51,017 nucleotides of DNA from the sequence record NZ_CP032820.1. One strand, 5' to 3'. This DNA is from a plasmid. Both the position numbers and the translations under genes were made by a program. Under the pieces are notes generated by a model. That model did no database searches, was not told where the DNA came from, and was given only the letters and a program-made list of their open reading frames with translations. Within the stretch, counting starts at the first letter, position 1. Each line of letters starts with the position of its first letter. Shown piece by piece: positions 1-51,017 of this stretch.

Positions 1-1218
1 ATGAGCGAAAGATTTGATTACGAACAGTTCAAGGCGAACGCCATAGAACAATTGAAGGCGGGAGTACCACTATCCGGCAAGGACGGAGTATTGGCACCGC
101 TGTTGGAGAATCTGCTTAACAGCGCGCTGGAAGGAGAGATGGACAGCCATCTGGAAGGAGTAGAACGGGAGTACGGGAATCGGCGCAACGGGCACATGAG
201 CAAGCAGGTCCAGACCTCGATGGGCGAAATAACGATCAACACGCCGCGGGACAGGGACGGGACATTCGACCCGCAGGTTGTCCGGAAGAGGGAGAAGATA
301 CTGGCGGACTCATTGGCGGACAGGATAATAGGGCTGTATGCCATCGGGAACAGCACGAGGGAGATAAGCGACATACTGGAGGAGCAGTTCGGGAACAGGA
401 TATCGGCGGAGACGATCAGCAGCATCACGGACAGGGTGCTGCCGGAGATCCAGGCATGGAAGAGCCGGGCGCTGGAAAGCGTCTATCCCATAGTATGGCT
501 TGATGCGGTGCATTATAAGGTGATGGACGAGAAGAACCGTCCTGTGACCAGAGCCATATATAATGTTCTGGCAATCAATTCGGAAGGCCGCAAGGAATTG
601 CTCGGGATGTACATATCCAAGAGCGAGGGTGCGAACTTCTGGCTGGGTGTCCTGACCGACCTCCAGAGCAGAGGAGTCCGGGACATCCTCATAGCGTGCG
701 TTGACGGGCTGAAGGGTTTCCCGGATGCGATAGCGAGCGTCTTTCCCGAGACCACGGTGCAGTTGTGTATAGTCCACCAGATACGCAACTCGATAAAGTA
801 TGTGGCCAGCAAGCGGCAGAAGGAGTTCATGAAGGATCTGAAGCAGGTCTACCAGGCGGTGAACAAGGATGCGGCGGAACAGGCTCTGGATGAGCTGGAA
901 CTGAAGTGGGGCGAGGACTATCCGATAGTCATCAAGAGCTGGCGTGACAACTGGGAAAGGCTCAGCGCGTACTTCCAATACTCCGAACACATACGGCGCA
1001 TAATATACACCACCAACACCGTGGAGGGCTACCACCGCCAGTTGCGTAAGGTCACCAAGAACAAGGGGGTCTTTCCGAACGACACAGCCCTCGAAAAACT
1101 TGTGTTTATGGCATTTACAAGAATCAGACGCAAGTGGACGCAGCCTGTCCAGAACTGGGGTCAGACTGCCCAGCAACTGGCCATCCTGTTCCCGGACAGG
1201 TTCAGGATACTGTCCTGA
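1..1218 (+). CDS. IS256-family (mutator-type) transposase, copy A; identical to the copy at 49711..50928
   Basis: 405-aa ORF with a Transposase_mut-like central region typical of IS256-family transposases. GC-rich relative to the backbone. Confidence 0.85.
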   Translation: MSERFDYEQFKANAIEQLKAGVPLSGKDGVLAPLLENLLNSALEGEMDSHLEGVEREYGNRRNGHMSKQVQTSMGEITINTPRDRDGTFDPQVVRKREKILADSLADRIIGLYAIGNSTREISDILEEQFGNRISAETISSITDRVLPEIQAWKSRALESVYPIVWLDAVHYKVMDEKNRPVTRAIYNVLAINSEGRKELLGMYISKSEGANFWLGVLTDLQSRGVRDILIACVDGLKGFPDAIASVFPETTVQLCIVHQIRNSIKYVASKRQKEFMKDLKQVYQAVNKDAAEQALDELELKWGEDYPIVIKSWRDNWERLSAYFQYSEHIRRIIYTTNTVEGYHRQLRKVTKNKGVFPNDTALEKLVFMAFTRIRRKWTQPVQNWGQTAQQLAILFPDRFRILS

Positions 1219-1333
1219 AAAAACACTATTATTTGGAGTTCTTTGATAGGTTTGATAAATTAGCGGTTGGAGTAGGCGGCCATGGCCGCCTACTCCGACA
1301 CAACAAAACTAAACTTGACACAGTTCAGTTTAC
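1..1333 (+). mobile_element. IS256-family insertion sequence, partial at window start; right terminus about 1333
   Basis: The right terminal IR core ACTTGACACA (RC TGTGTCAAGT) at 1314-1323 matches the left IR core at 49664-49673. The element is about 1.39 kb if the window is circular. Confidence 0.6.
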
Positions 1334-2299
1334 ACTCCCTTTTACTGAAGTTTGCATTAATAAAGAATATACTACAGCTGATATATGCGCAACATATTGT
1401 GACGCTTGTGATTCATTTCCCTTGAAATCCTTAACAAATACCGCTAAGGTATAACTGATATTATTAGGCAGACATATATAGGCAACATCATTGTGAGCTG
1501 CAAGAACACCATTTTCATTAACATAACCTGAACCTGTCTTATGCGCTATAACAACCCCTTCTTTATCAAGAAGTGGAGCTGCTATCCTATCTACACCTGT
1601 TTTGCATTCTTTTAACGTATTCTTAATGAAACTTTGTTTCTCATCATCGATAAGACCTTCAGTAAACAAACGATTCATCAACATTGCAGCACCAAGAGGA
1701 GATGTATAGTTAGAGTAAGCCTTGTTATGGTCAGCCGACATTTCCTCTTCCGTATAAGCTATCTGAAAACTTGAACGAGGAATGAGTGTGGCTATAAAAC
1801 TATCTGTTTGAGCGACATTAACCATATCCTTAAACATAAGGTTGCTTGCATTGTTGTCACTCTGAGTAAGAGTATAACGCAGCAAATCTCTCACTGTCAA
1901 TGATATGACTGGCCCTGAATAATCTTTCAGCATAGGACTCCAAGTCTTTGGGTCAAGTTTATCCCTATTTATATTTACTAAGGTATCAAGTGAAATTCCT
2001 TTATTGTCAAAGTCATTACAAAGAGCTAATGCCTGATGAACCTTAAACACACTCATCATAGGATAAACACTCTTATTATTGACCTTAACCGTATCTCTGT
2101 TATTAACAATAACCGCCACACCAATTTCGCCAGGACAAGCTGAGACAATTTGAGAAATGCTATCAGTCAAAACATTTGTTAAAGGAGGATTTGCGCTATC
2201 TTTTGTCGCTGATTTATGGAACAATGAAAATACCAAGATGAAAATGCAAACTAAAGCTATACACAAAACTACGATTTGTTTTTTTCTGTTTTTTCCCAT
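1325..2299 (-). CDS. cfxA: Class A beta-lactamase, CfxA family (cefoxitin resistance)
   Basis: 324-aa protein with class A motifs S-V-F-K, S-D-N and K-T-G and a signal peptide. The sequence matches what I recall of Bacteroides/Prevotella CfxA nearly residue for residue. The E in KGNESQ is consistent with the CfxA2/3-type K272E substitution, which I recall only tentatively. Confidence 0.9.
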   Translation of the reverse strand: MGKNRKKQIVVLCIALVCIFILVFSLFHKSATKDSANPPLTNVLTDSISQIVSACPGEIGVAVIVNNRDTVKVNNKSVYPMMSVFKVHQALALCNDFDNKGISLDTLVNINRDKLDPKTWSPMLKDYSGPVISLTVRDLLRYTLTQSDNNASNLMFKDMVNVAQTDSFIATLIPRSSFQIAYTEEEMSADHNKAYSNYTSPLGAAMLMNRLFTEGLIDDEKQSFIKNTLKECKTGVDRIAAPLLDKEGVVIAHKTGSGYVNENGVLAAHNDVAYICLPNNISYTLAVFVKDFKGNESQASQYVAHISAVVYSLLMQTSVKGSVN

Positions 2300-3329
2300 G
2301 TTTATATTATTTATATTTGTTTGACGAGAATATCTTTATTTGCCGACAAAGGTACATAACTTTACGGAAAAATATGTTTCTAAAATATATAAATAGACAG
2401 CTGTGGGGAAAAATTAGATAATTAAAAAGGCTAAATGACTGAAAATAATCACTTAGCCTTTTAATCCGTACCCAGACCCGTACTTCGTAATTGCTGCGCC
2501 CATCATTCAAGACTGTCAAATCGGGTCTTTCCTGTCAAGCCAATGATGCCTATGCGTATGCCAAACACATGGATTACGGATTTCTCGTTCCGTGAACAAA
2601 CACTTTATCCGCAACTCTGCTATGTGGTGTATTGGCTTAACTCCATTTCTATGGGCAACACTTTTGTTGCAGATTTCAAGCAGCTTTTATCGAAATACCC
2701 ATCAGTAAGAACCCGTTTATTAGGCTTTCCTCATAATTGGGAACAAGAGCCTTTGTGGAGATAAAATAATTGCCCTGTTTCTTAAAAAGCACTGGGGCAA
2801 ACCAGCTCCGTCTTTAATTGTTTCCAATAAATGGATTGTTTCAAGCCCCTATAGAAAGAGAACAAAAATTCCTGTGTGAAAATTAATCTACGACAAGGAG
2901 CAAGCAAGGAGCAATATCAAACAAAAATCAATACCTTTGCAGTACATATGAGATAGACCAAAACAAAAGTGGAATATCGGAAACGAATAGCAAGGAAAAG
3001 AGAAGAAACGACCCAAGTTGATGTCCTTTTTGAGTTAATAATCAATAAAAGCGTTAAATCTTCACCTTTTAGAATGTGCAATTAAAAATAACAACCATAT
3101 TTCTGACTTATTATCTATAAAATATTGAGTAATAATCGGTTGTAAATACTTAGATTAAATACAAATTAACATTGATAGTAGCCTACAAAAAAAACGAGTA
3201 GGAGTTGACGAGTTGCTAGAAGTAATTAAAATGCAAAATGAAATTAATGAGCTAAGAAAAAATGGGAAATTAACTCCAGAAGACACTGTACGAATAAAAG
3301 ATTTATACCATAAATTAAATAAATAGCGT

Positions 3330-4439
3330 ATGAAACAGATTAATATTAAAAAACCTAAGTACATCATTCCTATACTCATCCTACCTTTTATCCTAGGGAT
3401 AGGATGGCTAGTTAAGGATATGATAAACTCTGCCCCAGCAGAAGAAACTACATTAGTAGAAACGGAAGAATTAAATCTTGATATTCCTGATGCTAATTTA
3501 GAAAAAAGAGAGATAAAAAGTAAATTTGAATCACTCAAAGGAGCTTTCAATAAATCTTCTGATTATTCATCAATACAAACCATAGATAAAGAAGAAGAAG
3601 TTAGCGAAATTGAAAGTTCTGGTTCTCTTTACTCCAATGATGAAATAAGGCAAATTGACAGTTTAAATCAAGCTTCTAGAATCCGAGAAAAGGAATTGGA
3701 ACAACAAATAAAAGGATTTCCTACTATAGATGAATCAAGTCAAACAGAAACTAGGAAAGCTCCTGAAAAATCCAAGATGCAAGAAGAAATGGAGCTTTTT
3801 AAAATGCAAATGGCTTATATAGATTCATTGCAAAATCCACGTCCTAGAACACCTCAAAAAAAACAAGATGAAAAGCCAAAAGAAAAGGCTATAGAAGTTG
3901 TAAAAGCGAAAAATCCCGCAGAAGTATATTTTAATACTGTAGGGAAAGAACAAAAAACTTCACTAATCACAGCTATATTAGATGAAACTTTAAAAGTAAC
4001 AGATGGTAGCCGAGTACGCATACGGCTTTTAGATGATATAATGATTAATGACGCTCTTTTAACTAAAGGCACTTACCTATATGGGAATGTATCTGGCTTT
4101 AAAGCTCAAAGAGTACACATTAATATTTCCTCTATAATGGTTGATGGCAGACAAATGAAAGTAGATTTATCTGTATATGATAATGACGGACAAGAAGGTT
4201 TCTTTGTTCCTTCATCAGCTTTTAGAGATTTGAGTAAAGATGTTGGAGCGCAAATAGGAAGCCAAACTATACAAATGAACAGCCAATCAGAAGGAGTAGA
4301 ACAATTCGCTTTAGGTGCTTTACAAGATGCTTACCGTAGTACAACCCAAGCTCTTTCCAAAAACATCAAAAAAAACAAAGCCAAATTAAAATATAACACA
4401 CAAGTTTTTTTAGTAAACAACAAAGATAAAGAACAATAA
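3330..4439 (+). CDS. traM: Conjugative transfer protein TraM-like (Bacteroidetes T4SS)
   Basis: N-terminal TM segment, size and position immediately before a TraN-like gene. Same order as CTnDOT traM-traN. Confidence 0.55.
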   Translation: MKQINIKKPKYIIPILILPFILGIGWLVKDMINSAPAEETTLVETEELNLDIPDANLEKREIKSKFESLKGAFNKSSDYSSIQTIDKEEEVSEIESSGSLYSNDEIRQIDSLNQASRIREKELEQQIKGFPTIDESSQTETRKAPEKSKMQEEMELFKMQMAYIDSLQNPRPRTPQKKQDEKPKEKAIEVVKAKNPAEVYFNTVGKEQKTSLITAILDETLKVTDGSRVRIRLLDDIMINDALLTKGTYLYGNVSGFKAQRVHINISSIMVDGRQMKVDLSVYDNDGQEGFFVPSSAFRDLSKDVGAQIGSQTIQMNSQSEGVEQFALGALQDAYRSTTQALSKNIKKNKAKLKYNTQVFLVNNKDKEQ

Positions 4440-24754: not shown

Positions 24755-24820
24755 TATAATTTATTCATATAATAAATATTCAAATATTATATATTCATAT
24801 ATTATTTATATATATAATAT

Positions 24821-25069: not shown

Positions 25070-25130
25070 AGAAATAGTAACGCTGTCTTTATCACTAAAA
25101 TTATATATATAAATATTATATATACATATA

Positions 25131-26590: not shown

Positions 26591-26591
26591 T

Positions 26592-30892: not shown

Positions 30893-31630
30893 AAGAAGCA
30901 ATGTTTCATGATTTTGTTTGCTGTTCTTTATACTGGCAGCCAAACCAGCTTTAAAGGTTTGTTTATCTCTTTATTTTCAATACTCAAAGATAGTGATTTT
31001 CTATAAATGTCGCAAATAATAGGACAATTATTTTTGTTAAAAATGGTTTTAGGTTTATAGACTGCCGAGGTTTTATTTTTCCCTAAGGTTTTTGGTATCA
31101 TAATAATGTTCTCTTATCGTCCATGCCGGGCAGAACCCGGAAAAGTACGGTATCAAATACCTTCCCGGTTTCTCTCCAGTGCAGGCAGAAAAGGTATCAA
31201 TTAGATGCAATCCTTTTGCCGATGGGCGGTAGTTCCTGAATGGTGTCGGTGTCTTTTCTTTTATGATGCAGCCGTTTTCCTGTATTCAAGTATAGAGAGA
31301 AACGACACAAGGAACTTTAGGGAAAAGAAGATTTTTCGTGTTGCTCTTTCTGGAAGTGGAGTATATTAATCATATATTATATGTTTATAGGTTCATATAT
31401 TATATATTCATATATTATTTATATATAGTGTTTTCTCTTTGTTCTTTTTCCCTATAGTTTTATGGTATCAATTTTTTGTGTCCGGCTTCCGGCAGCTTTT
31501 TGTATTTGGTATCAAAAGGTCGTTCTACAGGGTGTGCCAGGAATGATAATTCGGTATCATTTCATCATGCCATGTTTACCCATCAATGCCGCAACTCCGA
31601 AAAGTACGGTATGAATTTCTTTCCCTATAG
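30893..31630. repeat. Composite repeat copy 3, reverse orientation: type C (30893-31075), type A (31076-31326), linker, type B (31445-31630)
   Basis: Near-identical to copies 1 and 2. The type C ATG here is followed by only a 27-codon ORF, so it is a decayed copy. Confidence 0.9.
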
Positions 31631-32933: not shown

Positions 32934-33115
32934 AATTTTGTTTGCTGTTCTTTATACTGGCAGCCAAACCAGCTTTAAAAGTTTATTTATCTCTTTATTT
33001 TCAATACTCAAAGATAGTAATTTTCTATAAATGTCGCAAATAATAAGACAATTATTTTTGTTAAAAATAGTTTATAATTGGCTGATTTTTAAGGTATTAT
33101 CTTTTCCCTAAAGTT
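32928..33115. repeat. Type C promoter/5'-UTR module, solitary copy driving the ArdC-like gene
   Basis: About 150 bp near-identical to 8878-9040 (RC) and 30893-31075. Ends in TTTTCCCTAAAGTT at 33102-33115. Confidence 0.85.
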
Positions 33116-34095: not shown

Positions 34096-34437
34096 ATGAG
34101 TTATTCACAATTTATCATGGCTGTATTTGCCATTTATGTAGTTTACTACGCTGCAAACATCCTGTATGATGCTTTCCTAAAGCAAAGCAAAACCAATACA
34201 GGTGAAGAAGAAGAAATTATTTCAATAGGAGAGGAAGAAGAAATACCTCACAAAGTTGTAGATGAAGATTTTGAAACAGGCTCATACGAAAAAGAAGATG
34301 AAAAAAAAGAATCTGAACAGAATTATGTATCTGTAAATGAATCTATTGAAATGGAAGTTGAAACACAAGGTATTCCAATGGAACAACTTCTTGCTAAAGG
34401 GAAAAGCATGTTTTCACACGTAAATTTTAACAAATAA
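34096..34437 (+). CDS. Hypothetical protein with N-terminal TM and acidic tail (TraD position)
   Basis: 113-aa ORF immediately upstream of the traE-like gene. Confidence 0.35.
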   Translation: MSYSQFIMAVFAIYVVYYAANILYDAFLKQSKTNTGEEEEIISIGEEEEIPHKVVDEDFETGSYEKEDEKKESEQNYVSVNESIEMEVETQGIPMEQLLAKGKSMFSHVNFNK

Positions 34438-37928: not shown

Positions 37929-38603
37929 ATGAAGAAAATCCTATTTATTTTAGTGGTAGCATCTACTTTAACCCAAGTTGCATATTCGCAAAAGGCAGTC
38001 TTGGATATAACCTGTATGGAAACACTTATAGCTAATCATAAGGTGCAACATACTTCTTTCTCTAAAGTGAAAGAGAATGAAGCTCAAATAAGCCTTATAC
38101 AAAAACAAATCAGTGAAAAAATGGTTCAGATTGAATTTTTCCAAAGCAAATTTTATAATAGCCTAAAATCTGTAGAAGCCATCATAAAAACAGGAAAAGA
38201 TATTATCTACTGTACAGATATTGCAGCAGATATTGGTAAATATCAAAAACAAATGGTTGAACTTGCTGTAGGTGACCCGGCTTTATTATTGGTGTCAGCA
38301 AAAACAGAGCTAGAATTAGTTAATCGCACTGCGGATTTGACACAATACATTTATCAGGTCGCTATTGTCGGGACAGATGTAAACCTTATGGATAATAAGC
38401 AAAGAATAGACTTGCTTAAGTATGTTATTAATGAACTAAGAAACATGAGAGGTATAGCATACGCTGTATGCCGACAGATGAAAACAGCAAAAAGAAATGG
38501 AGTATTACAAACATTAGCTCCGGGGGTATTTAAATACAAAGATAATCGTTCAAAATTAGTTGATGATTTATTACAGAATTATAAAGTAAAACCTAAAAGA
38601 TAA
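37929..38603 (+). CDS. TraH/TraI-family secreted protein (paralogue of 16072..16779)
   Basis: Signal peptide. Conserved C-terminal block shared with 16072..16779. Confidence 0.5.
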   Translation: MKKILFILVVASTLTQVAYSQKAVLDITCMETLIANHKVQHTSFSKVKENEAQISLIQKQISEKMVQIEFFQSKFYNSLKSVEAIIKTGKDIIYCTDIAADIGKYQKQMVELAVGDPALLLVSAKTELELVNRTADLTQYIYQVAIVGTDVNLMDNKQRIDLLKYVINELRNMRGIAYAVCRQMKTAKRNGVLQTLAPGVFKYKDNRSKLVDDLLQNYKVKPKR

Positions 38604-40306: not shown

Positions 40307-40921
40307 ATGATTATTAAAAACTTAGAAAATAAAATCAAACTAGCCGGAATTTTATCCATTGGCTGTTTTGCAACAAGTATAGTTATTTCAGGCATGGCAC
40401 TAGCCTTTTGTTTCTCTTTAGTAAAAGCTGAAAGAAAAAAAATATATGTTTTAGATAATGATGTCCCTGTACTAGTGAAGCAAACTGGTACAGAAGTCAA
40501 CCTAGAAGTAGAATGTAAAAGCCACATAAATCTATTCCACACTTTATTTTTCACACTACCCCCAGACGATGAATTCATAAAATACAACATGGAAAAAGCC
40601 ATGTATCTAATTGATGATAGCGGATTAAAACAATATAATAATCTAAAAGAAAAAGGATATTTCAACACTATATTAGCGAGTTCTGCAACAGTAACAATTA
40701 TGACAGATAGTATCAAGATAGACATGAATAACCTATCTTTTGAATACTATGGCATCCAACGTATAGAGCGAGAAACTTCTATTCTTAAAAGGCAACTTGT
40801 AACTACAGGGAAATTAAGACAAATTCCACGCACTGAAAATAATCCTCATGGACTTATTATCACAGATTGGAAAACGATACTCAACAAAGACCTTGATTAT
40901 AAAGTAAAAAAGAATTTTTAA
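40307..40921 (+). CDS. traK: TraK-like protein
   Basis: 204 aa with N-terminal TM. Position after the traJ-like gene. Confidence 0.55.
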   Translation: MIIKNLENKIKLAGILSIGCFATSIVISGMALAFCFSLVKAERKKIYVLDNDVPVLVKQTGTEVNLEVECKSHINLFHTLFFTLPPDDEFIKYNMEKAMYLIDDSGLKQYNNLKEKGYFNTILASSATVTIMTDSIKIDMNNLSFEYYGIQRIERETSILKRQLVTTGKLRQIPRTENNPHGLIITDWKTILNKDLDYKVKKNF

Positions 40922-41190
40922 TGAAACTGTTTAAACATAAAAAGAATGATAGAAAAGAAACTATCAAGACTAAATCCGAGCAAGCTACAGTTGTTCTTCT
41001 TACTAAAATATTTCAAAAGTTCGGAGTTAATAACGCTTGTGAACGCTTATTAGCGTGGGCTGATATACACCGTAAAGCTATGTTTGGAATTACGATTTCA
41101 TTCCTTTCTTTCGTCACAATTCTATCATTAGTAATGCGTCCAGAAAGAAAGCCAATGCAAGTTTTCAACGAAGAAAAAAGCAGTATTTAG
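40921..41190 (+). CDS. traL: TraL-like small membrane protein (possibly 3'-truncated by the insertion)
   Basis: 89 aa with C-terminal TM. The insertion boundary lies within about 100 bp downstream. Confidence 0.45.
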   Translation: MKLFKHKKNDRKETIKTKSEQATVVLLTKIFQKFGVNNACERLLAWADIHRKAMFGITISFLSFVTILSLVMRPERKPMQVFNEEKSSI

Positions 41191-41540
41191 AAGCGTAGAA
41201 CAACCAAAAACAATCAGAAATATCCAAGCATAAACATTTAATTATCAACACATTCTAAAAATTAACACATTTCGACTGCTTTTTGATGCTTCCCAAATTT
41301 CCACATATTTTTGAGACGTATTTCTGACGTGGAGAATTTGCGGGGCTTGTTTTTTGTCACACCGTGCAGACAGTTGACAAGAGTTTACAACCGTTTACGA
41401 CAAGCGACAATACCTGCCCCGACATTCAGCGACGGTCACATCGTGTAGAAAGGCGACAACCGTTGACTGCCGTTTACATCCGTTCACCACTTCAGAGGAA
41501 TACAGGATTGGAGAAATGAACCAGTAAACGATAAAGCAGT

Positions 41541-42476
41541 ATGAAAGCAACCCGAAAATGCAGTTTTTGCGGCAAGTCCTTTGTAACCCGCAGCGGAATG
41601 CAAAGGTATTGCAGCGAGGCTTGTCAGGCAGAAGCCCGGCGAGCCAGAATGACACAGAAGAATAACCTCTTCAAGGCCGTCCGGCCAATCATGGAGATAC
41701 AGCATCAGGAGTATCTCACCTTTTCCAAGGCAGCCATACTCATGGGCTGTTCCCGACAGTACATCTATAAACTTGTAGCCATGGGCAAGCTGAAAGCCTC
41801 ACGCATCAGCAACCGCATGGCATTCATCCGCAGAGCCGACATCGAGCGGATGCTGGAGGGCAATCCCTACCACCGCATCCTGCCCGGCAGCACTTCCACA
41901 CCGAAAAAATCCGCTTCATCTTCCTTTCCGGGCAAAAAAGAAAAAAGGGAAAAGGGAGGCGATGAGATTTTGGACTTCTATTCCGGTGAAGAGGTGATGT
42001 CCCTTTATAAGGTCAAACAGTCATGGCTCTATACCACCGCCAAACGCAACCGCATTCCCATCTGCCGCATCGCTGGAAAGAACTATTACAGCAAGAAGCA
42101 TGTTGACGAGTTCTTCTGTGCGGCTGTTGATATGGAAAGTATCACCGACTGGCTCCTGACCGGAGAGGCGGAAGAGCTGTTCGGCATGAAGCCTGCCGCA
42201 CTCCGGGCATATGCCTACCGGCACAGGATACCGACCATAAGAGAATACGGCCGCACCTATTACTCCAAGTCCCATCTGGACGAACTCCGCAGAACCGATC
42301 TTGTGAACGACGAGCGTTATTACACCGTGGAACAGGTCCGGCAGATTTACGGGCTTTCCTCAGCCAACATCTGCCATATCGTCAAGGTTAAGCACATCGA
42401 AAAGATAAAGGTCGGCGTGAAGAACCTGCTTCTGCGCTCCGACGTGGAGCGTGTCATGGCTGAAAGGAACAAATAA
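41541..42476 (+). CDS. DNA-binding protein with N-terminal zinc ribbon and four tandem excisionase/MerR-like HTH repeats
   Basis: CSFCGKSF..YCSEAC zinc ribbon. Four repeats of the pattern YxxxxAAxxxGxSRQxIYKLV...G.L.A.RI..R..F.R.D.E. Confidence 0.5.
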   Translation: MKATRKCSFCGKSFVTRSGMQRYCSEACQAEARRARMTQKNNLFKAVRPIMEIQHQEYLTFSKAAILMGCSRQYIYKLVAMGKLKASRISNRMAFIRRADIERMLEGNPYHRILPGSTSTPKKSASSSFPGKKEKREKGGDEILDFYSGEEVMSLYKVKQSWLYTTAKRNRIPICRIAGKNYYSKKHVDEFFCAAVDMESITDWLLTGEAEELFGMKPAALRAYAYRHRIPTIREYGRTYYSKSHLDELRRTDLVNDERYYTVEQVRQIYGLSSANICHIVKVKHIEKIKVGVKNLLLRSDVERVMAERNK

Positions 42477-42616
42477 CCGCAAGCAACCGCCATTACCCGA
42501 AAATTATTTCAAAATGATTGTCGTGGAGATATTCACGGCTGTTTCACGTTGTTCCTTTGCCACCGTAAACACGGAGACACCTCCGGAAGTGTACAACCAG
42601 TTAAAACATCACCAAT

Positions 42617-43735
42617 ATGAGTAAATGCAAGACAGTAACCTTGCGCAAGCGCAAGATCAAGAACGGTACACAGTATTCGCTGTGTCTGGACTATTATCCC
42701 GGCTACCGTGACAACACCACCATGAAAGTGATAACACGTGAAGCTCTGGGTATTTACATTTTTGCCAAGCCTGCCAACCAGCAGGAGCGTGACTTCAACG
42801 CACGCATGATGAAGAAGGCGGAGATACTCCGCAACAGGCGTTACGAAGCCATCTTCAACGAGAACAACGGCTTCTTTGACAAGGCTAAGATGAAGGGGGA
42901 TTTCCTCGCCTACTTCAAGGAACTGGCAGACAGGAGAAATATCAAGTGGCAGCACGTCTACAAGCACTTCGAGCGGTTCGTGGGCGGCAAATGTACCTTT
43001 GAAGAGGTGGATGTGGACCTGTGCCGCAAGTTCATGGAGTACCTGCTGAACGCTCCCCAGACCATACACACCAACCAAAAGCTGCATATCAATTCTGCGG
43101 CAGGCTACTGGTCGGCTTTCCGTGCCGTCCTGCACACGGCCTACCGTGACAGGAAGATAAAGGAGAATCCCAACGGCTTTCTGGACCGTATCGAGAGTAT
43201 TCCCACCATGAGGGAGCATCTGAGCCAGGAGGAACTGATACGGCTTGCCGAAACGCCATGCGAGGAAGAGGTTCTGAAAAGGGCTTTCCTTTTCGCCTGC
43301 CTGACAGGATTGAGGAAGAGCGACATCAGGCAGCTTACCTGGCAGCAGATACAGCCGTACACCAACGGCAAGATGTTCGTTACCACCCGTATGCAGAAGA
43401 CGAAGCAGATTGTTCACAATCCCATCAGCGATGAAGCCTACGGACTGCTCGGGGAGCGGCATGAAGGGCTTATCTTCGAGGGCTTCAAGGATAAGATGCT
43501 GCAGGGGCCCCTGAAGCGTTGGCTGTCAGCGGCAGGCATAACCAAGAAGATAACCTTCCATTGCACCCGGCATTCATTCGGAAGCCTGCACGTGGAAATG
43601 GGCACGGACATGGCTGTCATACAAGCCTGTCTGGGACACAAGAACATTACCACCACACAGATCTATTCCAAGATGGCTGCACAGCAGATGTGTGACGTGG
43701 TGGACAAGATAACCCTGAAACGCAAGGAGGCATAG
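42617..43735 (+). CDS. Tyrosine site-specific integrase (IntN1-like)
   Basis: C-terminal catalytic residues in context: R...HCTRHSFGS...LGHKNITTTQIYSK (R-H-R-Y). Confidence 0.85.
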   Translation: MSKCKTVTLRKRKIKNGTQYSLCLDYYPGYRDNTTMKVITREALGIYIFAKPANQQERDFNARMMKKAEILRNRRYEAIFNENNGFFDKAKMKGDFLAYFKELADRRNIKWQHVYKHFERFVGGKCTFEEVDVDLCRKFMEYLLNAPQTIHTNQKLHINSAAGYWSAFRAVLHTAYRDRKIKENPNGFLDRIESIPTMREHLSQEELIRLAETPCEEEVLKRAFLFACLTGLRKSDIRQLTWQQIQPYTNGKMFVTTRMQKTKQIVHNPISDEAYGLLGERHEGLIFEGFKDKMLQGPLKRWLSAAGITKKITFHCTRHSFGSLHVEMGTDMAVIQACLGHKNITTTQIYSKMAAQQMCDVVDKITLKRKEA

Positions 43736-43976
43736 GCCTGTTTCAGGGTATTCAGGGGGAGCGGTTATTGCGTGCAGGCTTTAACCGCTCCCTCTGTTTC
43801 TAATGGCACCATTCCCTAAAAAGTCATTATAGTATGATATTCGGGTATGATTCCGGGCTTTTGGTGAAAAACATTGAAAAAGAAACCGCCAACCAAAGCT
43901 AAAGAGCAATAATTGGAAGAATACAATTAAATTTGCAAAGACCTGACAGTTACAAGTAATAACCGAAAAAAACGAT

Positions 43977-44807
43977 ATGGAACCAACGATAAAGGACAAA
44001 TACATCATTCTGGGATTCATCGGCGTTGCCATCTGCCTGATTTCCTTTTTTATCACACTGATTGTCTCCGCAAGTTTCAATCAGGACAATTTTGTAAGGC
44101 TGATAGTCTTTGTATGCAGCAACATTCTCGGCTGGCTGCTCTATCTCTCTTTCCAGACGGTCATTTTCGACTCATACGAGATCTGGAAACTCAAGTCCGG
44201 CAAGAAAAAGGCATCTGCCGGAATCATAAAGGCTCAGGAAGAACAGCCACAGGATACGCATGAACCTGCTGCTCCGACACCGATGCCGACAGGCGGGGAA
44301 GCAACCCCGGATATAAAACCGGTAGAGATTGCCATTGCCCCGGAACTTCACGAAAAGAACCGTGCCAGCTATGAGGACAGACAGAAGCAGGAAGAAGCGG
44401 AACGGATCCGCATGGTCATGGAGTACATCCACTTCGTCATGCCCCGTATTGCCGACAAGGAGACCGTCAACCATATCTGTGCCGAGGTCAACAAGTGGAT
44501 GTGCCTTCACAGCTACAAGCCCAAGCCGATAACAGGACGGCTGACCAGAGAGATTACCAACATTCCGCTCCGCCATTTCGTGTGGAACATCTCCGAGCGT
44601 TTCATGTACAAGAAATACTACAACGGGGACAACCGTGCCAATTTTATCAAGACCCTTTTTCCACGTGAATTTGCCGACACGGATATAGCGACCATAAAGA
44701 ACTTCAAGGTCGATCCGTCAAAGACGCTGATTCCCATTGACGAACCCGAAAACGGCAGTCTGGACTTCCATTATCCCGAAGATTATGTACGGGAAGTGAA
44801 CAGTTGA
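43977..44807 (+). CDS. Hypothetical membrane protein with Pro/Glu-rich linker
   Basis: 276 aa. Two N-terminal TM helices. Confidence 0.4.
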   Translation: MEPTIKDKYIILGFIGVAICLISFFITLIVSASFNQDNFVRLIVFVCSNILGWLLYLSFQTVIFDSYEIWKLKSGKKKASAGIIKAQEEQPQDTHEPAAPTPMPTGGEATPDIKPVEIAIAPELHEKNRASYEDRQKQEEAERIRMVMEYIHFVMPRIADKETVNHICAEVNKWMCLHSYKPKPITGRLTREITNIPLRHFVWNISERFMYKKYYNGDNRANFIKTLFPREFADTDIATIKNFKVDPSKTLIPIDEPENGSLDFHYPEDYVREVNS

Positions 44808-45017
44808 CCGTTTCCCGGGGATATAACAACAATAACGACAAGTATCAGGCAATACGTAACAGCCTGTATCTCATTGTTTCCCGAATAACTTTGCCCCTCA
44901 TTCACGGTTGGACATCGTTATTCGGGAATTATTTTGCAATGACCTTTCGTGAAGATATTCACGGCCATATCATTGCGGTCCTTTGCGCCAAGCCTTACAA
45001 AAGAGGCGAGTACGCAA

Positions 45018-45392
45018 ATGGAAAAAACAGTGATTACATTCAACGACCTTCCCGAGGTCGTAGCCCAGCTTCGGGACGAAGTGATGAGCTTGAGAAGCCT
45101 GCTTACCGAGCAGCGCAGTGTGAACAATGCAAAGGCGGTGGACACCCATGTCCCCATGTCCGTGGATGAAGCGGCGGAATATCTCGGTATTCCCAAGGGA
45201 ACGCTCTACATGAAACTGTCGGACGGAAGCATTCCGGCCACCAAGCCCGGCAAACGCTATTGCCTTTACCGTGACGAACTGGACAGATGGCTGGAATCCT
45301 CCCGCAAGAATCCCGTACCCCTGTCCGATGAGGAACTCAGCGAGTCCATGTCCTCCTCCCACCGCCGCAAGCCCGGTCAACGTAACTGGTAA
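45018..45392 (+). CDS. Excisionase-family HTH DNA-binding protein (ORF opens at 44949; probable start at MEKTV)
   Basis: HTH_17-like segment VDEAAEYLGIPKGTLYMKLSDGSIPATKPGKRYCLYRDELDRWL. Confidence 0.55.
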   Translation: MEKTVITFNDLPEVVAQLRDEVMSLRSLLTEQRSVNNAKAVDTHVPMSVDEAAEYLGIPKGTLYMKLSDGSIPATKPGKRYCLYRDELDRWLESSRKNPVPLSDEELSESMSSSHRRKPGQRNW

Positions 45393-45397
45393 GAGCC

Positions 45398-46552
45398 ATG
45401 GAAGAGGACAAGAACTATATTAGCATGATACATGGCGACCTGACGAGGGCAGCCCAGATGCAGAACGGTATGCCGGAAAATATCGGTGTAATGAGCATAA
45501 AGACCGCCAACCGGACCATACTCGAAGCATCACAGCTGCCCACGCCCCGTGCGTTGTGGGACAGCTTCTGGTACGAGGGGGAACTGTCCTGCCTCTTTGC
45601 AGATTCCAACGTGGGGAAATCCATCCTTGCCGTCCAGATAGCCGACCGTATAGCACGGACTGACAACGTGCTTTATCTGGACTTTGAACTCTCTGAAAAG
45701 CAGTTCCAGCTCCGCTATACCGACGAGTACGGAAAGCCTTACATTTTTCCCGAAAGGCTGTACCGGGTATCGCTTGACTGCGACGCCCTTCTCGATGCCG
45801 ACTTTGAAGGGACGATCATCGGCAGCATCGAACAGATGGCACAGCAGACCCGCTGCAGGATCTTCATCGTTGACAACCTTACTTACCTGTGCTGTGCCAT
45901 GGAGAAAGGCGATGCGGCGGGACGGCTGATGATACAGCTCAACAATCTCAAAAAGAGATACGGGCTTTCCATCCTAGTCCTGGCACACACCCCAAAGCGT
46001 TCACTGGACTGTCCCATCACGTCCAACGACCTTGCCGGAAGCAAGCGGCTCTACAATTTCTTTGACAGCGTGTTTGTCATCGGGAAAAGCGCACTGGACG
46101 GGGGACTACGCTATGTGAAGCAGCTCAAGGTCCGTTACGGGACATTCTCGTACGATGCCGACAATGTGATTGTCTATGAGATTGAGAAAACGGACGCCTT
46201 CCTGCAATTCGTGTTCAGGGGCTATTCAACCGAAAAGGAACACCTGAAGAAACCGGGTGACAACGAATCGGGACAAAGGGATTGCCTTATCCTGCAACTG
46301 TCCCAATCAGGGAAGTCAGTCCGGGAGATAGCCTCGCAGGTCAATTGCGGCAAGTCCACCGTCAGCCGGATAATCCAGCGCAGCAAGGAGGACAGGAACG
46401 CGGCCGTCCCGGGTGTCCCGCTGTCCCGTCCCAAGGAGAACGGGACAATGGGACAGGTGGGACAGCATGGGACAGATGGGACAAGCGGGACAGCAGGAGA
46501 AGCAAGGCAGGCGGATCTGTTTGCAGGACATGAAAAGGAGGACAAGCCATGA
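45398..46552 (+). CDS. AAA-family ATPase (RepA/DnaB-loader-like, AAA_25-type) with C-terminal HTH
   Basis: Walker A DSNVGKS, Walker B IFIVDN, C-terminal HTH (SVREIASQVNCGKSTVSRI). Confidence 0.6.
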   Translation: MEEDKNYISMIHGDLTRAAQMQNGMPENIGVMSIKTANRTILEASQLPTPRALWDSFWYEGELSCLFADSNVGKSILAVQIADRIARTDNVLYLDFELSEKQFQLRYTDEYGKPYIFPERLYRVSLDCDALLDADFEGTIIGSIEQMAQQTRCRIFIVDNLTYLCCAMEKGDAAGRLMIQLNNLKKRYGLSILVLAHTPKRSLDCPITSNDLAGSKRLYNFFDSVFVIGKSALDGGLRYVKQLKVRYGTFSYDADNVIVYEIEKTDAFLQFVFRGYSTEKEHLKKPGDNESGQRDCLILQLSQSGKSVREIASQVNCGKSTVSRIIQRSKEDRNAAVPGVPLSRPKENGTMGQVGQHGTDGTSGTAGEARQADLFAGHEKEDKP

Positions 46553-47853
46553 AAAAGCAGCCTGCACACGGCTGTATGACAGCCGACCGTATCATTTACA
46601 GGACATGGGAGCATACAAACCGGGCCCTGATTTTCCAGAGTGTCCCGGGGTGTCCCAAGTGTCCCACTGTCCCAGCCTTTAGGGGGCGGGACAGTGGGAC
46701 AACGGGACAAACAGTAGAAAACCAATCATCAAAAAAAGTCATGAGCAACTATTCATTACAGAAATATAAAGGAACGTCAACACGGCATACCTGTCCGAAT
46801 TGCGGGGACAGACGTTCCTTTGCCTACTACGTGGACGAAAGCGGTACGCCCCTTCACCCGTCAGTCGGCAGATGCAACCACGAAAGCGGCTGCGGGTATC
46901 ATTATACGCCCAGACAGTATTTTCACGACCACCCCGAATGCCGGACCGCCGGTGATTTCTCTTCCGGCAGGCAATGTATGGCGCAGAAGCCCAAGCAACC
47001 GCTGCAACAGACAGCCATCGGTTACATACCGCCACACTATGTGGAGAAATCGCAGAGCTTGCATAGCAACTTCTGCCGTTTCCTTTCAGTACTGCTTGAT
47101 TCCTATTACGGCAGCAAGGCAAAGGAAGTGCTGGAACGGTTGATGGAGGATTACCGTCTGGGAGCTACCCGTGACGGTGCGGTCATCTTCTGGCAGATTG
47201 ACCGGGAGAACAAGGTACGGACAGGCAAGGTGATGCAGTACAATCCCGGGGACGGACACCGTGTAAAGGACGGACAGACATCGGCAGTGAACTGGATACA
47301 CAGCATACTGAAAAGGCAACGGGTACTGGCGGAGGGATGGCAGCTTTCCCAATGCCTTTTCGGGGAACACCTGTTGAGTGTCTATCCTGACAAGGTGGCG
47401 GTTCTGGTGGAATCCGAGAAGAGTGCCGTTATCGGTTCCGCCCTCTTCCCCGGCTATGTATGGCTGGCGGCAGGAGGCAAAAGCCAGTTGCGGGAGGAAA
47501 AGCTCCGTGTGCTGACCGGGCGGACCGTGCTTCTCTTTCCGGATGCCGATGCCTATGCCGAATGGAAAGAGCGTGCCGACGGCATGACCTTCTGCAAGGT
47601 GATGGTGTCTGACCTCATAGAGAAGAACGCAACGCCGGAGCAGAAGGCGGCACATATCGACATAGCCGACTGGATAATCTTCCAGATCCGGGAAAGCAGG
47701 ATAAATTGTACAGCCGACCATCTGGTGGAAGCGGAAAGAATCCTGCAAAGGATGATAGAAAAGAACCCCGCCCTTCAAAAGCTGATAGATGATCTGGGGC
47801 TTGTGCTGGTCGGTGCATCCTCAATCGGCAGCGGTGACGGAACCCCTCCTTAA
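46549..47853 (+). CDS. DNA primase (CHC2 zinc finger plus Toprim; PrmN1-like)
   Basis: CPNCGDRRSF...CNHESGCGYH zinc finger. Toprim E (LVESEKSAV) and DxD (FPDADAYAEW). Confidence 0.7.
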   Translation: MKKQPAHGCMTADRIIYRTWEHTNRALIFQSVPGCPKCPTVPAFRGRDSGTTGQTVENQSSKKVMSNYSLQKYKGTSTRHTCPNCGDRRSFAYYVDESGTPLHPSVGRCNHESGCGYHYTPRQYFHDHPECRTAGDFSSGRQCMAQKPKQPLQQTAIGYIPPHYVEKSQSLHSNFCRFLSVLLDSYYGSKAKEVLERLMEDYRLGATRDGAVIFWQIDRENKVRTGKVMQYNPGDGHRVKDGQTSAVNWIHSILKRQRVLAEGWQLSQCLFGEHLLSVYPDKVAVLVESEKSAVIGSALFPGYVWLAAGGKSQLREEKLRVLTGRTVLLFPDADAYAEWKERADGMTFCKVMVSDLIEKNATPEQKAAHIDIADWIIFQIRESRINCTADHLVEAERILQRMIEKNPALQKLIDDLGLVLVGASSIGSGDGTPP

Positions 47854-48135
47854 CGGAGGAGAGCGGAAACCGAAGGTTGTAGTGTACGGACAATGGCTTG
47901 CCATTGATATAGCCCACTATAACTACACGCTTCGCTTACGTAGTTGTGGGCTCTCCCGAGAGGATTAGGGTTTTACCCTAATAACCCACTCAGGGCGTTT
48001 CTCCCCTGAGAACCCAGAGCAAAGAGTGACCCTCTCTTTGCAATCTCCGCTTATGGGTTGCACCCCTAAGAACCCCATGCGTTTACGGACAGCGGAAAAG
48101 CTAACAATAAAGTACAAACCAAAAAACAAGTATCT

Positions 48136-49539
48136 ATGGCAACAAAATCAAGCATACATATCAAGCCCTGCAACATCGCATCGAGCGAGGCTCACAACAG
48201 GAGGACTGCCGAATACATGCGCCACATCGGAGAGTCCAGAATCTATGTCGTTCCTGAACTATCCACCGATAACGAACAGTGGATAAATCCCGACTTCGGC
48301 AGTCCGGATTTGCGGACGCATTATGACAATATCAGACAGATGGTAAAGGAAAAGACCGGACGTGCCATGCAGGAAAAGGAGCGTGAACGCAAAGGCAAGA
48401 ACGGTAAAATAGTCAAGATTGCGGGATGCTCCCCCATACGTGAAGGAGTGCTGCTTGTCAGGTCGGACACCACACTGGCAGACGTGCGTAAATTCGGTGA
48501 GGAGTGTCAAAGACGCTGGGGAATCACACCGCTGCAAATCTTCCTGCACAAGGATGAAGGGCATTGGCTGAACGGTCAGCCGGAAGCGGAAGACAGGGAA
48601 AGCTTCAAAGTCGGGGACAGATGGTTCAAGCCGAACTATCATGCCCATATCGTTTTCGACTGGATGAACCACGAAACAGGAAAGAGCCGAAAGCTCAATG
48701 ACGATGACATGATGCAGATGCAGACCCTTGCATCCGACATCCTGCTGATGGAACGCGGGCAGTCAAAGGTTGTCACTGGTAAGGAGCATCTGGAACGGAA
48801 CGACTTTATCATTGAGAAGCAGAAAGCTGAACTGCAACGCATGGATGCAGCCAAACGGCACAAAGAAGAACAGATAAATCTTGCCGAGCAGGAACTGAAA
48901 CAGGTGAAATCAGAAATACGCACTGACAAGTTAAAGAAGACAGCCACCACGGCAGCGACAGCCATAACTAGTGGAGTTGCTTCTCTTTTCGGGAGTGGAA
49001 AACTGAAAGAACTGGAACGTGCCAACGAAAAACTGCAAGACGAGGTTTCAAAACGGAACACCAATATTGAAAAATTGCAGAGCCAAGTACAGCAGATGCA
49101 GAAACAGCATGATACGCAAATCCACAATCTCAGAGAAATGCACAGGCAGGAACTTGACATGAAAGAAAAAGAACTGTCACGGCTCGCCAGAATCATAGAC
49201 AAGGCTTTTAGGTGGTTTCCGATGTTCAGGGAAATGCTGCGCATGGAAAAGTTTTGTGCCATGCTGGGATTCTCTAAAGAAATGACTGAAAGTCTTATAG
49301 TCAAAAAAGAAGCCCTGAAATGTAGCGGTAAAATCTATTCCGAGCAACACAGGCGGAACTTTGATATAAAGGATGATATTTTAAGGGTGGAAAATGACCC
49401 TGACGATGAAAGCAGGCTGAACCTGACAATAAACAGGAAGCCGATTGCCGACTGGTTCAGGGAGCAATGGCACAGGCTTAGATATGGAGCAAGAGTGCCG
49501 CAACAGGAAGAAAGAAAAAGTAGAGGATTCAAATTATAA
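48136..49539 (+). CDS. Mobilization relaxase (MobN1/Tn4555 MobA-like)
   Basis: N-terminal relaxase region with HAHIVFDW His motif and a long coiled-coil C-terminus. Confidence 0.7.
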   Translation: MATKSSIHIKPCNIASSEAHNRRTAEYMRHIGESRIYVVPELSTDNEQWINPDFGSPDLRTHYDNIRQMVKEKTGRAMQEKERERKGKNGKIVKIAGCSPIREGVLLVRSDTTLADVRKFGEECQRRWGITPLQIFLHKDEGHWLNGQPEAEDRESFKVGDRWFKPNYHAHIVFDWMNHETGKSRKLNDDDMMQMQTLASDILLMERGQSKVVTGKEHLERNDFIIEKQKAELQRMDAAKRHKEEQINLAEQELKQVKSEIRTDKLKKTATTAATAITSGVASLFGSGKLKELERANEKLQDEVSKRNTNIEKLQSQVQQMQKQHDTQIHNLREMHRQELDMKEKELSRLARIIDKAFRWFPMFREMLRMEKFCAMLGFSKEMTESLIVKKEALKCSGKIYSEQHRRNFDIKDDILRVENDPDDESRLNLTINRKPIADWFREQWHRLRYGARVPQQEERKSRGFKL

Positions 49540-49550
49540 TAGAAGCAATT

Positions 49551-49608
49551 TGATTAGTAATCTAAAAGCACTCCGATAACGATTAGAGTGCTTTTAGATT
49601 ACTAATCA
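49551..49608. terminator. 23-bp perfect palindrome with 12-nt loop immediately after the mob gene
   Basis: TGATTAGTAATCTAAAAGCACTC-cgataacgatta-GAGTGCTTTTAGATTACTAATCA. Confidence 0.6.
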
Positions 49609-49653
49609 TTAATTATCAAAGCAAGTGCAGTTTAAGATTTTACTGGAGAGCGT

Positions 49654-51017
49654 AAATTAAAGTGTGTCAAGTAAGGTAAAAAATAATAACTTTAGACACA
49701 CTTTTTTATTATGAGCGAAAGATTTGATTACGAACAGTTCAAGGCGAACGCCATAGAACAATTGAAGGCGGGAGTACCACTATCCGGCAAGGACGGAGTA
49801 TTGGCACCGCTGTTGGAGAATCTGCTTAACAGCGCGCTGGAAGGAGAGATGGACAGCCATCTGGAAGGAGTAGAACGGGAGTACGGGAATCGGCGCAACG
49901 GGCACATGAGCAAGCAGGTCCAGACCTCGATGGGCGAAATAACGATCAACACGCCGCGGGACAGGGACGGGACATTCGACCCGCAGGTTGTCCGGAAGAG
50001 GGAGAAGATACTGGCGGACTCATTGGCGGACAGGATAATAGGGCTGTATGCCATCGGGAACAGCACGAGGGAGATAAGCGACATACTGGAGGAGCAGTTC
50101 GGGAACAGGATATCGGCGGAGACGATCAGCAGCATCACGGACAGGGTGCTGCCGGAGATCCAGGCATGGAAGAGCCGGGCGCTGGAAAGCGTCTATCCCA
50201 TAGTATGGCTTGATGCGGTGCATTATAAGGTGATGGACGAGAAGAACCGTCCTGTGACCAGAGCCATATATAATGTTCTGGCAATCAATTCGGAAGGCCG
50301 CAAGGAATTGCTCGGGATGTACATATCCAAGAGCGAGGGTGCGAACTTCTGGCTGGGTGTCCTGACCGACCTCCAGAGCAGAGGAGTCCGGGACATCCTC
50401 ATAGCGTGCGTTGACGGGCTGAAGGGTTTCCCGGATGCGATAGCGAGCGTCTTTCCCGAGACCACGGTGCAGTTGTGTATAGTCCACCAGATACGCAACT
50501 CGATAAAGTATGTGGCCAGCAAGCGGCAGAAGGAGTTCATGAAGGATCTGAAGCAGGTCTACCAGGCGGTGAACAAGGATGCGGCGGAACAGGCTCTGGA
50601 TGAGCTGGAACTGAAGTGGGGCGAGGACTATCCGATAGTCATCAAGAGCTGGCGTGACAACTGGGAAAGGCTCAGCGCGTACTTCCAATACTCCGAACAC
50701 ATACGGCGCATAATATACACCACCAACACCGTGGAGGGCTACCACCGCCAGTTGCGTAAGGTCACCAAGAACAAGGGGGTCTTTCCGAACGACACAGCCC
50801 TCGAAAAACTTGTGTTTATGGCATTTACAAGAATCAGACGCAAGTGGACGCAGCCTGTCCAGAACTGGGGTCAGACTGCCCAGCAACTGGCCATCCTGTT
50901 CCCGGACAGGTTCAGGATACTGTCCTGAAAAAACACTATTATTTGGAGTTCTTTGATAGGTTTGATAAATTAGCGGTTGGAGTAGGCGGCCATGGCCGCC
51001 TACTCCGACACAACAAA
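49654..51017 (+). mobile_element. IS256-family IS copy B, truncated by the window end; left IR core TGTGTCAAGT at 49664-49673
   Basis: 49711-51017 is identical to 1-1307. The transposase CDS is at 49711..50928. Confidence 0.7.
49711..50928 (+). CDS. IS256-family transposase, copy B
   Basis: Identical to 1..1218. Confidence 0.85.
   Translation: MSERFDYEQFKANAIEQLKAGVPLSGKDGVLAPLLENLLNSALEGEMDSHLEGVEREYGNRRNGHMSKQVQTSMGEITINTPRDRDGTFDPQVVRKREKILADSLADRIIGLYAIGNSTREISDILEEQFGNRISAETISSITDRVLPEIQAWKSRALESVYPIVWLDAVHYKVMDEKNRPVTRAIYNVLAINSEGRKELLGMYISKSEGANFWLGVLTDLQSRGVRDILIACVDGLKGFPDAIASVFPETTVQLCIVHQIRNSIKYVASKRQKEFMKDLKQVYQAVNKDAAEQALDELELKWGEDYPIVIKSWRDNWERLSAYFQYSEHIRRIIYTTNTVEGYHRQLRKVTKNKGVFPNDTALEKLVFMAFTRIRRKWTQPVQNWGQTAQQLAILFPDRFRILS

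Follow-up and report, generated by a model that had tools for sequence, protein, structure and literature searches.

The plasmid record NZ_CP032820.1, a stretch of 51,017 nucleotides (nt) that is referred to here as the window, carries a large insert in its conjugation (tra) operon, between the genes traK and traM. The insert comprises positions 41183-49710 and 1-3156, 11,684 bp in total, and its removal leaves a backbone of 38,026 bp. Its genes follow the order tnpA-int-tnpC-xis-AAA-DUF6371-mobA-cfxA, the same as in relatives annotated as 'transposon Tn4555 protein TnpA/TnpC', and an insertion sequence (IS) of the IS256 family lies in the last codon of cfxA. Gene content and ends mark the insert as a single mobilizable transposon, or integrative mobilizable element, of the Tn4555 family, 10,265 bp long, within which the IS is nested. 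The backbone can be assigned to the pBF9343-type conjugative plasmid family of Bacteroides and Phocaeicola; for the greater part of the backbone, identity is 95-99% to plasmids from Bacteroides fragilis, B. thetaiotaomicron, B. ovatus, B. faecis, B. xylanisolvens, Phocaeicola vulgatus and P. dorei. The coordinates of the features are collected in Table 1.

The two ends of the window repeat each other. Positions 1-1307 are identical to 49711-51017, with 0 mismatches, an untrimmed terminal overlap of 1,307 bp that is typical of a circular assembly. The molecule is a circle of 49,710 bp with untrimmed ends, a closure that is derived from the identity of the overlap and from the same 8-bp duplication on both sides of the IS, across which mobA and cfxA are rejoined. 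The initial annotation had placed the insert between the tra genes by reading the sequence as a circle, and the identical overlap bears this reading out over a linear one. The overlap falls entirely within one IS, so the circle holds a single copy; the second of the two copies that had been counted is the repeat of 1-1307. Feature tallies made over the full window count the IS transposase twice. A composite transposon bounded by two IS copies was also considered, and it was rejected, the supposed second copy being the terminal overlap.

The insertion site was defined by comparison with insert-free members of the plasmid family. About 29 related plasmids are continuous across 41182/3157: their left flank aligns up to 41182 and their right flank from 3157, with both matches abutting within the same record, as in CP103229.1 (17131-18515 and 18515-18759) and NZ_CP054001.1 (1510-2894 and 2894-3138). 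In the three-way alignment, the empty site reads GAAGAAAAAAGCA followed directly by AAGTACAAATT. The left junction of the window reads AAAAGCA followed by GTATTTAGAAGCG, and the right junction reads GTAAATAC, then TTAGATT, then AAATACAAATT. A coincidence concerning one of these relatives can be mentioned here: the record of NZ_CP054001.1, an insert-free plasmid of B. fragilis, has the same length as the window (51,017 bp), with a traK region that is only about 93% identical and lies at other coordinates, so the agreement in length is apparently fortuitous.

The insertion is intragenic. It splits codon 88 of a 143-codon open reading frame (ORF) located between traK and traM, with codons 1-87 at 40921-41181, codon 88 divided between 41182 and 3157-3158, and the last 55 codons and the stop at 3159-3326. 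Excision of 41183-3156 in silico rejoins the ORF in frame, with one conservative V-to-I difference. The intact 143-residue ORF is present in CP103229.1, its product reading NEEKSKVQINIDSN and, further on, KLNK; it is kept at the same position in the approximately 29 related plasmids, and relatives label it 'hypothetical protein'. The break falls after a hydrophobic, predicted membrane segment, which the truncated product retains. Searches of Pfam and NCBIfam (E <= 0.01) gave no match for either the truncated ORF or its intact 143-residue relative, and for this reason 'TraL' is a positional name only, taken from the place between traK and traM.

These results refine several statements of the initial annotation. 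An insertion of about 11.9 kb at the traL-traM junction, with boundaries at 41190 and 3330, had been proposed; homology to the empty-site plasmids ends instead at 41182 and resumes at 3157, within an ORF, and the measured insert is somewhat shorter. A 45-residue peptide without an ATG had been read as the displaced C-terminus of TraL. It does belong to the displaced C-terminus of the interrupted ORF, but the displaced part is longer (55 codons, 3159-3323, plus the split codon 88), and the name TraL is not backed by any family match. The jump in guanine-cytosine (GC) content that had been placed near 41330 is real: the backbone ranges from 0.28 to 0.37 and positions 41001-51000 from 0.44 to 0.55, with the step at 41301-41401 in 100-nt windows. 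This step trails the junction at 41182/41183 because the first 150 nt or so of the element are AT-rich.

Table 1. Features of the insert and of the adjoining transfer operon in the window (aa, amino acid identity; HTH, helix-turn-helix; MFE, minimum free energy).
Feature	Coordinates	Strand	Evidence or remark
Truncated ORF between traK and traM	40921..41190	+	87 native codons, then Ser-Ile-stop from transposon end; native sequence to 41182
Left part of Tn4555-family element	41183..49645	+	8,463 bp, GTATTTA terminus to IS insertion point
tnpA, HTH_17 DNA-binding protein, Tn4555 targeting-protein homologue	41541..42476	+	Pfam HTH_17 E = 4.5e-27; 88% aa to canonical
int, tyrosine integrase with arm-DNA-binding domain	42617..43735	+	Pfam Phage_integrase, Phage_int_SAM_5, Arm-DNA-bind_5; 94% aa to Tn4555 integrase
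tnpC homologue	43977..44807	+	66% aa to Tn4555 TnpC; no Pfam match
xis, excisionase-family DNA-binding protein	45018..45392	+	TIGR01764 excise E = 2.1e-19; 86% aa to Tn4555 excisionase
AAA_25 ATPase with C-terminal HTH	45398..46552	+	Pfam AAA_25 E = 1.3e-17; 86% aa to canonical
Zinc-ribbon/DUF6371 protein	46549..47853	+	Pfam DUF6371 E = 1.2e-51, Zn_ribbon_16; 80% aa to canonical
mobA, Tn4555 mobilization protein	48136..49539	+	99.6% aa to canonical protein annotated 'mobilization protein'
Hairpin, 14-bp stem, between convergent mobA and cfxA	49560..49599	+	MFE -20.4 kcal/mol, z = -4.5; 0/200 shuffles as good
IS target-site duplication, copy 1, TTTTACTG	49638..49645	.	
IS256-family IS, left inverted repeat and transposase	49646..51017	+	49711-51017 repeat 1-1307
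Rest of the same IS: transposase ORF 1-1218, right inverted repeat to 1339	1..1339	+	Overlap identity, inverted repeats
IS target-site duplication, copy 2, TTTTACTG	1340..1347	.	
cfxA	1325..2299	-	NF033100 bla_CfxA 710.3 bits (cut-off 625), positions 1-319 of 319; 99% aa to canonical
Right part of Tn4555-family element: cfxA, upstream region, right end	1348..3149	+	Ends TAAATAC; 98.6-99.3% nt to canonical Tn4555
Coupling sequence TTAGATT, 7 nt, foreign to element and target	3150..3156	.	Equivalent 7 nt vary between copies
Displaced 3' part of 143-codon ORF	3157..3326	+	Last two bases of codon 88, 55 codons, stop
traM	3330..4439	+	First intact gene 3' of insert; TIGR03779 318 bits, cut-off 172

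The synteny of the element and its identity to Tn4555 confirm that a Tn4555-like transposon with cfxA is present, as had been suspected. The transposon, the IS and cfxA are not separate adjoining pieces, as which they had been listed: cfxA is the cargo of the element itself and the IS is nested at the stop codon of cfxA. Moreover, the resemblance between the insert size and the 12.1 kb of Tn4555 is coincidental. The canonical Tn4555 copies that were recovered measure about 10,067 bp, and in the window an element of similar length is enlarged by the 1,412 bp of the IS plus duplication.

The degree of conservation is very uneven along the element. Nucleotide identity to canonical Tn4555 varies between 47 and 89% (300-nt windows) up to about position 48000 and is at least 99% from 48018 to the right end. 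A 27-nt signature of the left end was found in 23 species-representative Bacteroidales genomes, including Prevotella, Paraprevotella, Phocaeicola, Barnesiella, Butyricimonas and Parabacteroides, and the copy in Paraprevotella clara is 96.7% identical over 7.8 kb, and up to 99.8% in mobA. Based on this signature and on the identity to the P. clara copy, the element can be placed in a second, widespread lineage of Tn4555 that shares a near-identical mobA-cfxA-right-end module with the classical one.

The termini of the element form a 7-bp inverted repeat, GTATTTA/TAAATAC. The sequence GTATTT lies directly 5' of the variant left end in the window and in 23/23 genomic copies, whose flanks are mutually unrelated. 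The right end, CGGTTGTAAATAC, is common to six integrated copies and is followed by 7 nt that are different in each of them, the position that TTAGATT occupies in the window. The comparison with the empty site revealed no target-site duplication. The window insertion can be broken down into the element proper, these 7 nt on its right side, and the IS with its duplication; the termini agree with those of 26 other insertions and the junctions are base-precise against the approximately 29 independent plasmid records. A second, independent empty-site pair gave the same picture: in plasmid NZ_CP103142.1, canonical Tn4555 occupies the position that corresponds to window 20179/20180. Its flanks match the window at 99.6-99.8% identity, the target is not duplicated, and foreign bases (7-8 nt) are confined to the right junction.

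It has been described that Tn4555 integrates by a Tn916-like mechanism, with tnpA directing the choice of target (PMC5704250). The junctions in the window fit the pattern expected from such a staggered exchange, in which one junction would carry the overlap of the target and the other the overlap of the previous site. Short motifs of 10-12 nt are also shared by both ends of the element: TATTTCTGAC at 41319 and 3098 (and, in inverted orientation, at 41214), and CACATTCTAAAA and TTTACAACCG, likewise at both ends and inverted. Because the integrase possesses an arm-DNA-binding domain, these motifs are candidate arm-type sites for Int.

The target preference of the family was derived from 27 left flanks. 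The resulting logo displays T at -1 (25/27), W at -2, T at -10 (22/27) and Y at -9 and -8, and the left flank of the window (GAAAAAAGCA) departs from this consensus at -10, -9, -8, -2 and -1. Judged by this flank, the site is a secondary, non-consensus one; a flank of this kind is compatible with secondary-site use and has no bearing on the membership of the element in the Tn4555 family. If the coupling sequence is 7 nt long, an excision that left TTAGATT behind would produce GAA GAA TTA GAT TAA, that is, a stop codon in the ORF.

Some further records illustrate the diversity of these elements. Among the 23 genomic copies of the variant, six have similar left flanks (ATCGG.GA..ATGCGTTC), which resemble a recurring coding motif. 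This hints at a target gene family favoured by the variant lineage. In Caecibacteroides pullorum (NZ_JAAZTS010000004.1, reverse strand, about 4422-5184), a miniature element of about 760 bp combines a 254-bp left end of the Tn4555 variant, an unrelated middle part and a 191-bp right end; its flanks are like those of an ordinary insertion and it is possibly a non-autonomous derivative. Finally, CP103138.1, a 10,057-bp circular 'plasmid' record, corresponds to the entire canonical Tn4555. Its joint (5820-5830) reads CGGTTGT/TATAACC, without the expected TAAATAC-N7-GTATT palindrome, which could reflect either an assembly collapse or a real deletion. The record was accordingly dropped as a direct readout of the circular joint.

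The nested IS is 1,404 bp long (49646-49710 plus 1-1339) and is bounded by the inverted repeats GAGAGCGTAAATTAAAGTGTGTCAAG and GGGAGTGTAAACTGAACTGTGTCAAG. Its transposase scores 396.8 bits with NF033543 (cut-off 150) and matches PF00872 with E = 6.4e-102. When the IS is removed, its flanks rejoin mobA and cfxA at 99-100% identity to IS-free copies of Tn4555. A second copy, 99.4% identical, lies in a contig of unrelated sequence and is flanked there by a different 8-bp duplication, TTAGATGG, which confirms both the ends of the IS and its independence. The plasmid collection contained no close copy, the best match reaching 69.6% nucleotide identity, and an identical transposase was detected only in unannotated sequencing-run assemblies. 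No existing name was found for this IS.

The IS replaces the last codon of cfxA, changing the end of the product from TSVKS-stop to TSVKGSVN-stop and its length from 321 to 324 residues. CfxA is, as predicted from its family match, a full-length class A beta-lactamase with the C-terminal residue swapped for GSVN. The IS is located downstream of cfxA, not upstream, and therefore it does not act as a promoter donor for this gene. Two other differences from canonical Tn4555 affect the start of cfxA. The upstream region (2299-2420) contains one copy fewer of two short tandem duplications (AAAATATATA and TGTGGGGAAAA), and codon 2 is changed from Glu to Gly.

The position of the IS raises the question of an assembly artefact, either a chimera in which a chromosomal Tn4555 and its IS were joined to the plasmid through repeats or a linear molecule lying between two different IS copies. 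Both window ends lie within the IS, and an IS, which can be present many times in the same genome, is a well-known spot for assembly errors. However, both plasmid-transposon junctions are distant from the IS, and they are placed to the base at the termini seen in the 26 other insertions; removal of the insert restores the frame of the ORF, and the flanks of the IS, with the same 8-bp duplication, rejoin the canonical mobA-cfxA sequence. A misjoin would not give precise junctions, a restored frame and a matching duplication together, and we therefore regard an artefact as highly improbable.

The transfer operon on both sides of the insert retains its usual order. TraG (TIGR03783, 423 bits), TraK (TIGR03781, 303 bits), TraN (TIGR03780, 322 bits) and TraM (Table 1) are all above their NCBIfam cut-offs, which agrees with the tra operon that had been recognized around the insert; the assignment of TraJ is less firm, at 90 bits under a cut-off of 290. 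TraM and TraN are full length and have the same lengths as in an annotated relative. All genes of the insert except cfxA point in the same direction as the operon. The path of any read-through towards traM contains the hairpin after mobA, which is a probable terminator, the IS with its own terminal hairpin, and cfxA in antisense orientation.

Promoters that could replace the lost connection were searched for in the right arm. The full Bacteroides-type pattern (TTTG-N-TAnnTTTG, -33/-7) has no match facing traM in 2300-3330, and the only full match in the insert, at 41282-41313, reads into tnpA. A scan of the right arm for sigma-70-type promoters remained at shuffle level, with a pattern that is not applicable to Bacteroides. 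On balance, it seems probable that the expression of traM and the genes downstream from the operon promoter has been lost or strongly reduced, and that self-transfer is impaired. The plasmid retains genes recognizable as relaxase, coupling protein and replication functions; the element retains int, xis, tnpA, tnpC and mobA, with its excision genes and both termini intact. Given these retained genes and ends, excision of the element would still be possible, and both it and the plasmid could move if the missing functions were supplied in trans.

Taken together, it is very probable that a Tn4555-family element of 10,265 bp integrated into the 38,026-bp pBF9343-type plasmid following the Tn916/Tn4555 pattern, with a nested IS and presumably impaired transfer. 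The element would have entered the plasmid by means of its own tyrosine integrase, at a non-consensus secondary site in codon 88 of the 143-codon ORF, and TTAGATT at the right junction would be a carry-over from its previous location. The IS would have been inserted into the last codon of cfxA before or after this integration, generating the 8-bp duplication and replacing the C-terminal residue of CfxA with a four-residue tail. As a consequence, the small ORF would have been cut after its predicted membrane segment and traM onward parted from traK by 11.7 kb, so that expression of the operon past the insert would probably be lost or much reduced and self-transfer probably impaired. The mechanism itself is known, and this is a case of ordinary nested mobile elements, well resolved. 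What is new is a further member of the Tn4555 lineage, with an apparently unnamed IS256-family IS, in a tra-operon ORF of a plasmid whose family is well known. This combination of plasmid and transposon did not turn up in a search of the literature.

Nothing that contradicts the structural account was found, but several points weigh against the explanation as a whole. Its functional consequences are inferred and are not a structural result. The length of the coupling sequence is unsettled: the 7 nt were counted here against a relative that is only about 93% identical locally, with a G/A difference right after them, and the count is 7 or 8 in NZ_CP103142.1. The agreement with the published mechanism of Tn4555 relies on one review (PMC5704250). 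Two scans of the metagenome collection gave 0 exact matches to either plasmid-transposon junction, so that spread of this particular plasmid is neither shown nor excluded. Finally, the bare motif TAnnTTTG faces traM at 2312 and 2932, and the downstream tra genes are intact, with no signs of decay.

The last two points bear on whether the insertion is silent for conjugation. The interrupted ORF could be dispensable, or its N-terminal 87 residues enough, while a promoter located either in the right arm or in the 170 bp of the ORF that are retained would drive traM and the genes after it; the plasmid would then be self-transmissible with cfxA in cis. The intact, full-length downstream ORFs, the co-directional transposon genes (all but cfxA), the two plus-strand TAnnTTTG motifs and the hydrophobic segment kept by the truncated product are in line with this possibility. 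However, TAnnTTTG occurs at chance density (33 on the plus strand of the 49.7-kb circle) and no full promoter faces traM in 2300-3330; the hairpin, the IS and antisense cfxA stand in the read-through path; and the ORF has been conserved in the approximately 29 related plasmids. The intactness of the downstream genes fits a recent insertion and would be little telling if that was the case. A silent insertion thus appears unlikely, although it deserves to be kept in mind, and impaired self-transfer is preferred.

Two more members of the pBF9343-type family carry canonical Tn4555, in both cases in conjugation functions. In NZ_CP103142.1, a 57-kb plasmid of B. faecis, the transposon (3967-16054) splits the type IV coupling-protein gene, whose intact site corresponds to the 20179/20180 position of the window. 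This plasmid is still typed 'conjugative' in the plasmid collection, and the split of the coupling gene is unannotated because the plasmid table lists no pseudogenes. For CP103278.1 (about 3450-14330), the site of Tn4555 is a 400-bp piece of the tra operon's first ORF, in inverted orientation (window equivalent 34322-34332); it abuts a traK truncated at 40683 and is placed between this truncated gene and the ParA/relaxase region. Its left end is GATACTATAACC instead of GTATTTATAACC, a 12-nt loss. A third record, OY726014.1, carries Tn4555 in a flank unrelated to the backbone and was not counted as an event of this family.

These cases suggest a targeted insertion, in which Tn4555-family elements would prefer the conjugation genes of pBF9343-type plasmids, directed, for example, by TnpA or by the accessibility of DNA while it is being transferred. 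The insertions detected in the plasmid family all hit conjugation genes (3/3), and streptococcal elements that enter the conjugation genes of their helpers are known (PMC5704250). Nevertheless, conjugation genes account for about 40% of the backbone, and the probability that three events would all fall in them by chance is about 0.06. No shared target motif was found among the three plasmid insertion sites, the window site breaks the flank consensus, and the contexts of the 23 genomic insertions are for the most part unrelated. Targeting is therefore improbable. A bolder version, in which these elements preferentially enter transfer genes, disabling the helper yet staying mobilizable in a form of parasitism or hitch-hiking, is a shade more doubtful still; to our knowledge, such parasitism has not been described for Bacteroides elements. 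Entry at a secondary site remains the favoured explanation for the window.

Other features of the backbone lie away from the insert. Four to six direct repeats of 22 bp (AGGGACAAAAACCCAACTTCTT) at 26453-26591, directly upstream of the Rep3 initiator gene (26592-27749, minus strand), are probably the iterons of the replication origin. A longer repeat of 115-480 bp is present in five to six copies, in both orientations and with 87-100% identity, at 8567-9047, 18974-19088, 24818-25132, 25670-25969, 30905-31388 and 32929-33073; it contains a match to the Bacteroides-type promoter (TTTGCGACATTTATAGAAAATCACTATCTTTG) at 8936, 30985 and 33009. This repeat may be a regulatory module or a substrate for recombination. 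Furthermore, the ORFs at 16072-16779 and 37929-38603 are paralogous, with 47% amino acid identity over 220 residues (E = 4e-70), and neither matches a Pfam family. One follows traG within the tra operon, whereas the DUF3945/toprim region holds its partner.

Among gut and oral Bacteroidales, cfxA is the main gene for resistance to cephamycins and cephalosporins. The window shows that it can ride on pBF9343-type plasmids, a family shared at 98-99% among B. fragilis, B. thetaiotaomicron, B. ovatus, P. vulgatus and P. dorei, within a transposon lineage that is otherwise known chiefly from Prevotella-type genomes. A plasmid still able to transfer would offer cfxA a direct route between species; if the insertion has disabled transfer, the resistance element would have trapped itself and its carrier. 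The case is cleanly resolved, with ends that are exactly defined, a coupling sequence, one nested IS and another two empty-site pairs, and it gives a small lead on transfer genes as landing sites.

In comparison with known systems, pBF9343-type plasmids (e.g., NC_006873.1, NZ_CP081911.1 and NZ_CP096967.1) have the same Rep3 initiator with iterons, relaxase, coupling protein, ParA, ArdC, zeta toxin and Bacteroidetes-type traG-traN operon. The window plasmid differs from them by the 11.7-kb insert in the ORF between traK and traM and by a traK-traM segment that is locally more divergent, at about 93%. NZ_CP103142.1 and CP103278.1 share with it both the backbone and a Tn4555 in a conjugation function, but their sites are different, their elements belong to the canonical lineage, and they carry no IS.

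Classical Tn4555 has the same gene order, right end and terminal inverted repeat, a mobA-cfxA module that is at least 99% identical, and the same integration without target duplication and with a short carried-over coupling sequence. In contrast, the integration/excision/replication-like module of the window element is only 80-87% identical to it in nucleotides, and TnpC 66% in amino acids, compared with about 97% to the Paraprevotella and Prevotella-type copies. The window element is also distinguished by the nested IS256-family IS, the altered C-terminus of cfxA, the E2G change, the shortened region upstream of cfxA, and a non-consensus site within a plasmid transfer gene. As for the IS, its DDE transposase is of the Mutator type, its imperfect terminal inverted repeats measure about 26 bp, and it duplicated 8 bp of its target, all as in the IS256 family.

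NBU1 and NBU2 have an IntN-type integrase, and the same review (PMC5704250) places their insertion at the 3' end of tRNA genes, over a shared core; the target in the window, a protein-coding ORF lacking a shared core, does not fit this pattern. A parallel in arrangement is given by streptococcal integrative mobilizable elements that insert in the conjugation genes or the oriT of their helper elements (PMC5704250). There too, a mobilizable element is lodged among the transfer genes of a conjugative element that can carry it. However, the streptococcal elements are site-specific for a conserved gene, whereas the window site is non-consensus and the evidence for targeting in this plasmid family consists of three events.

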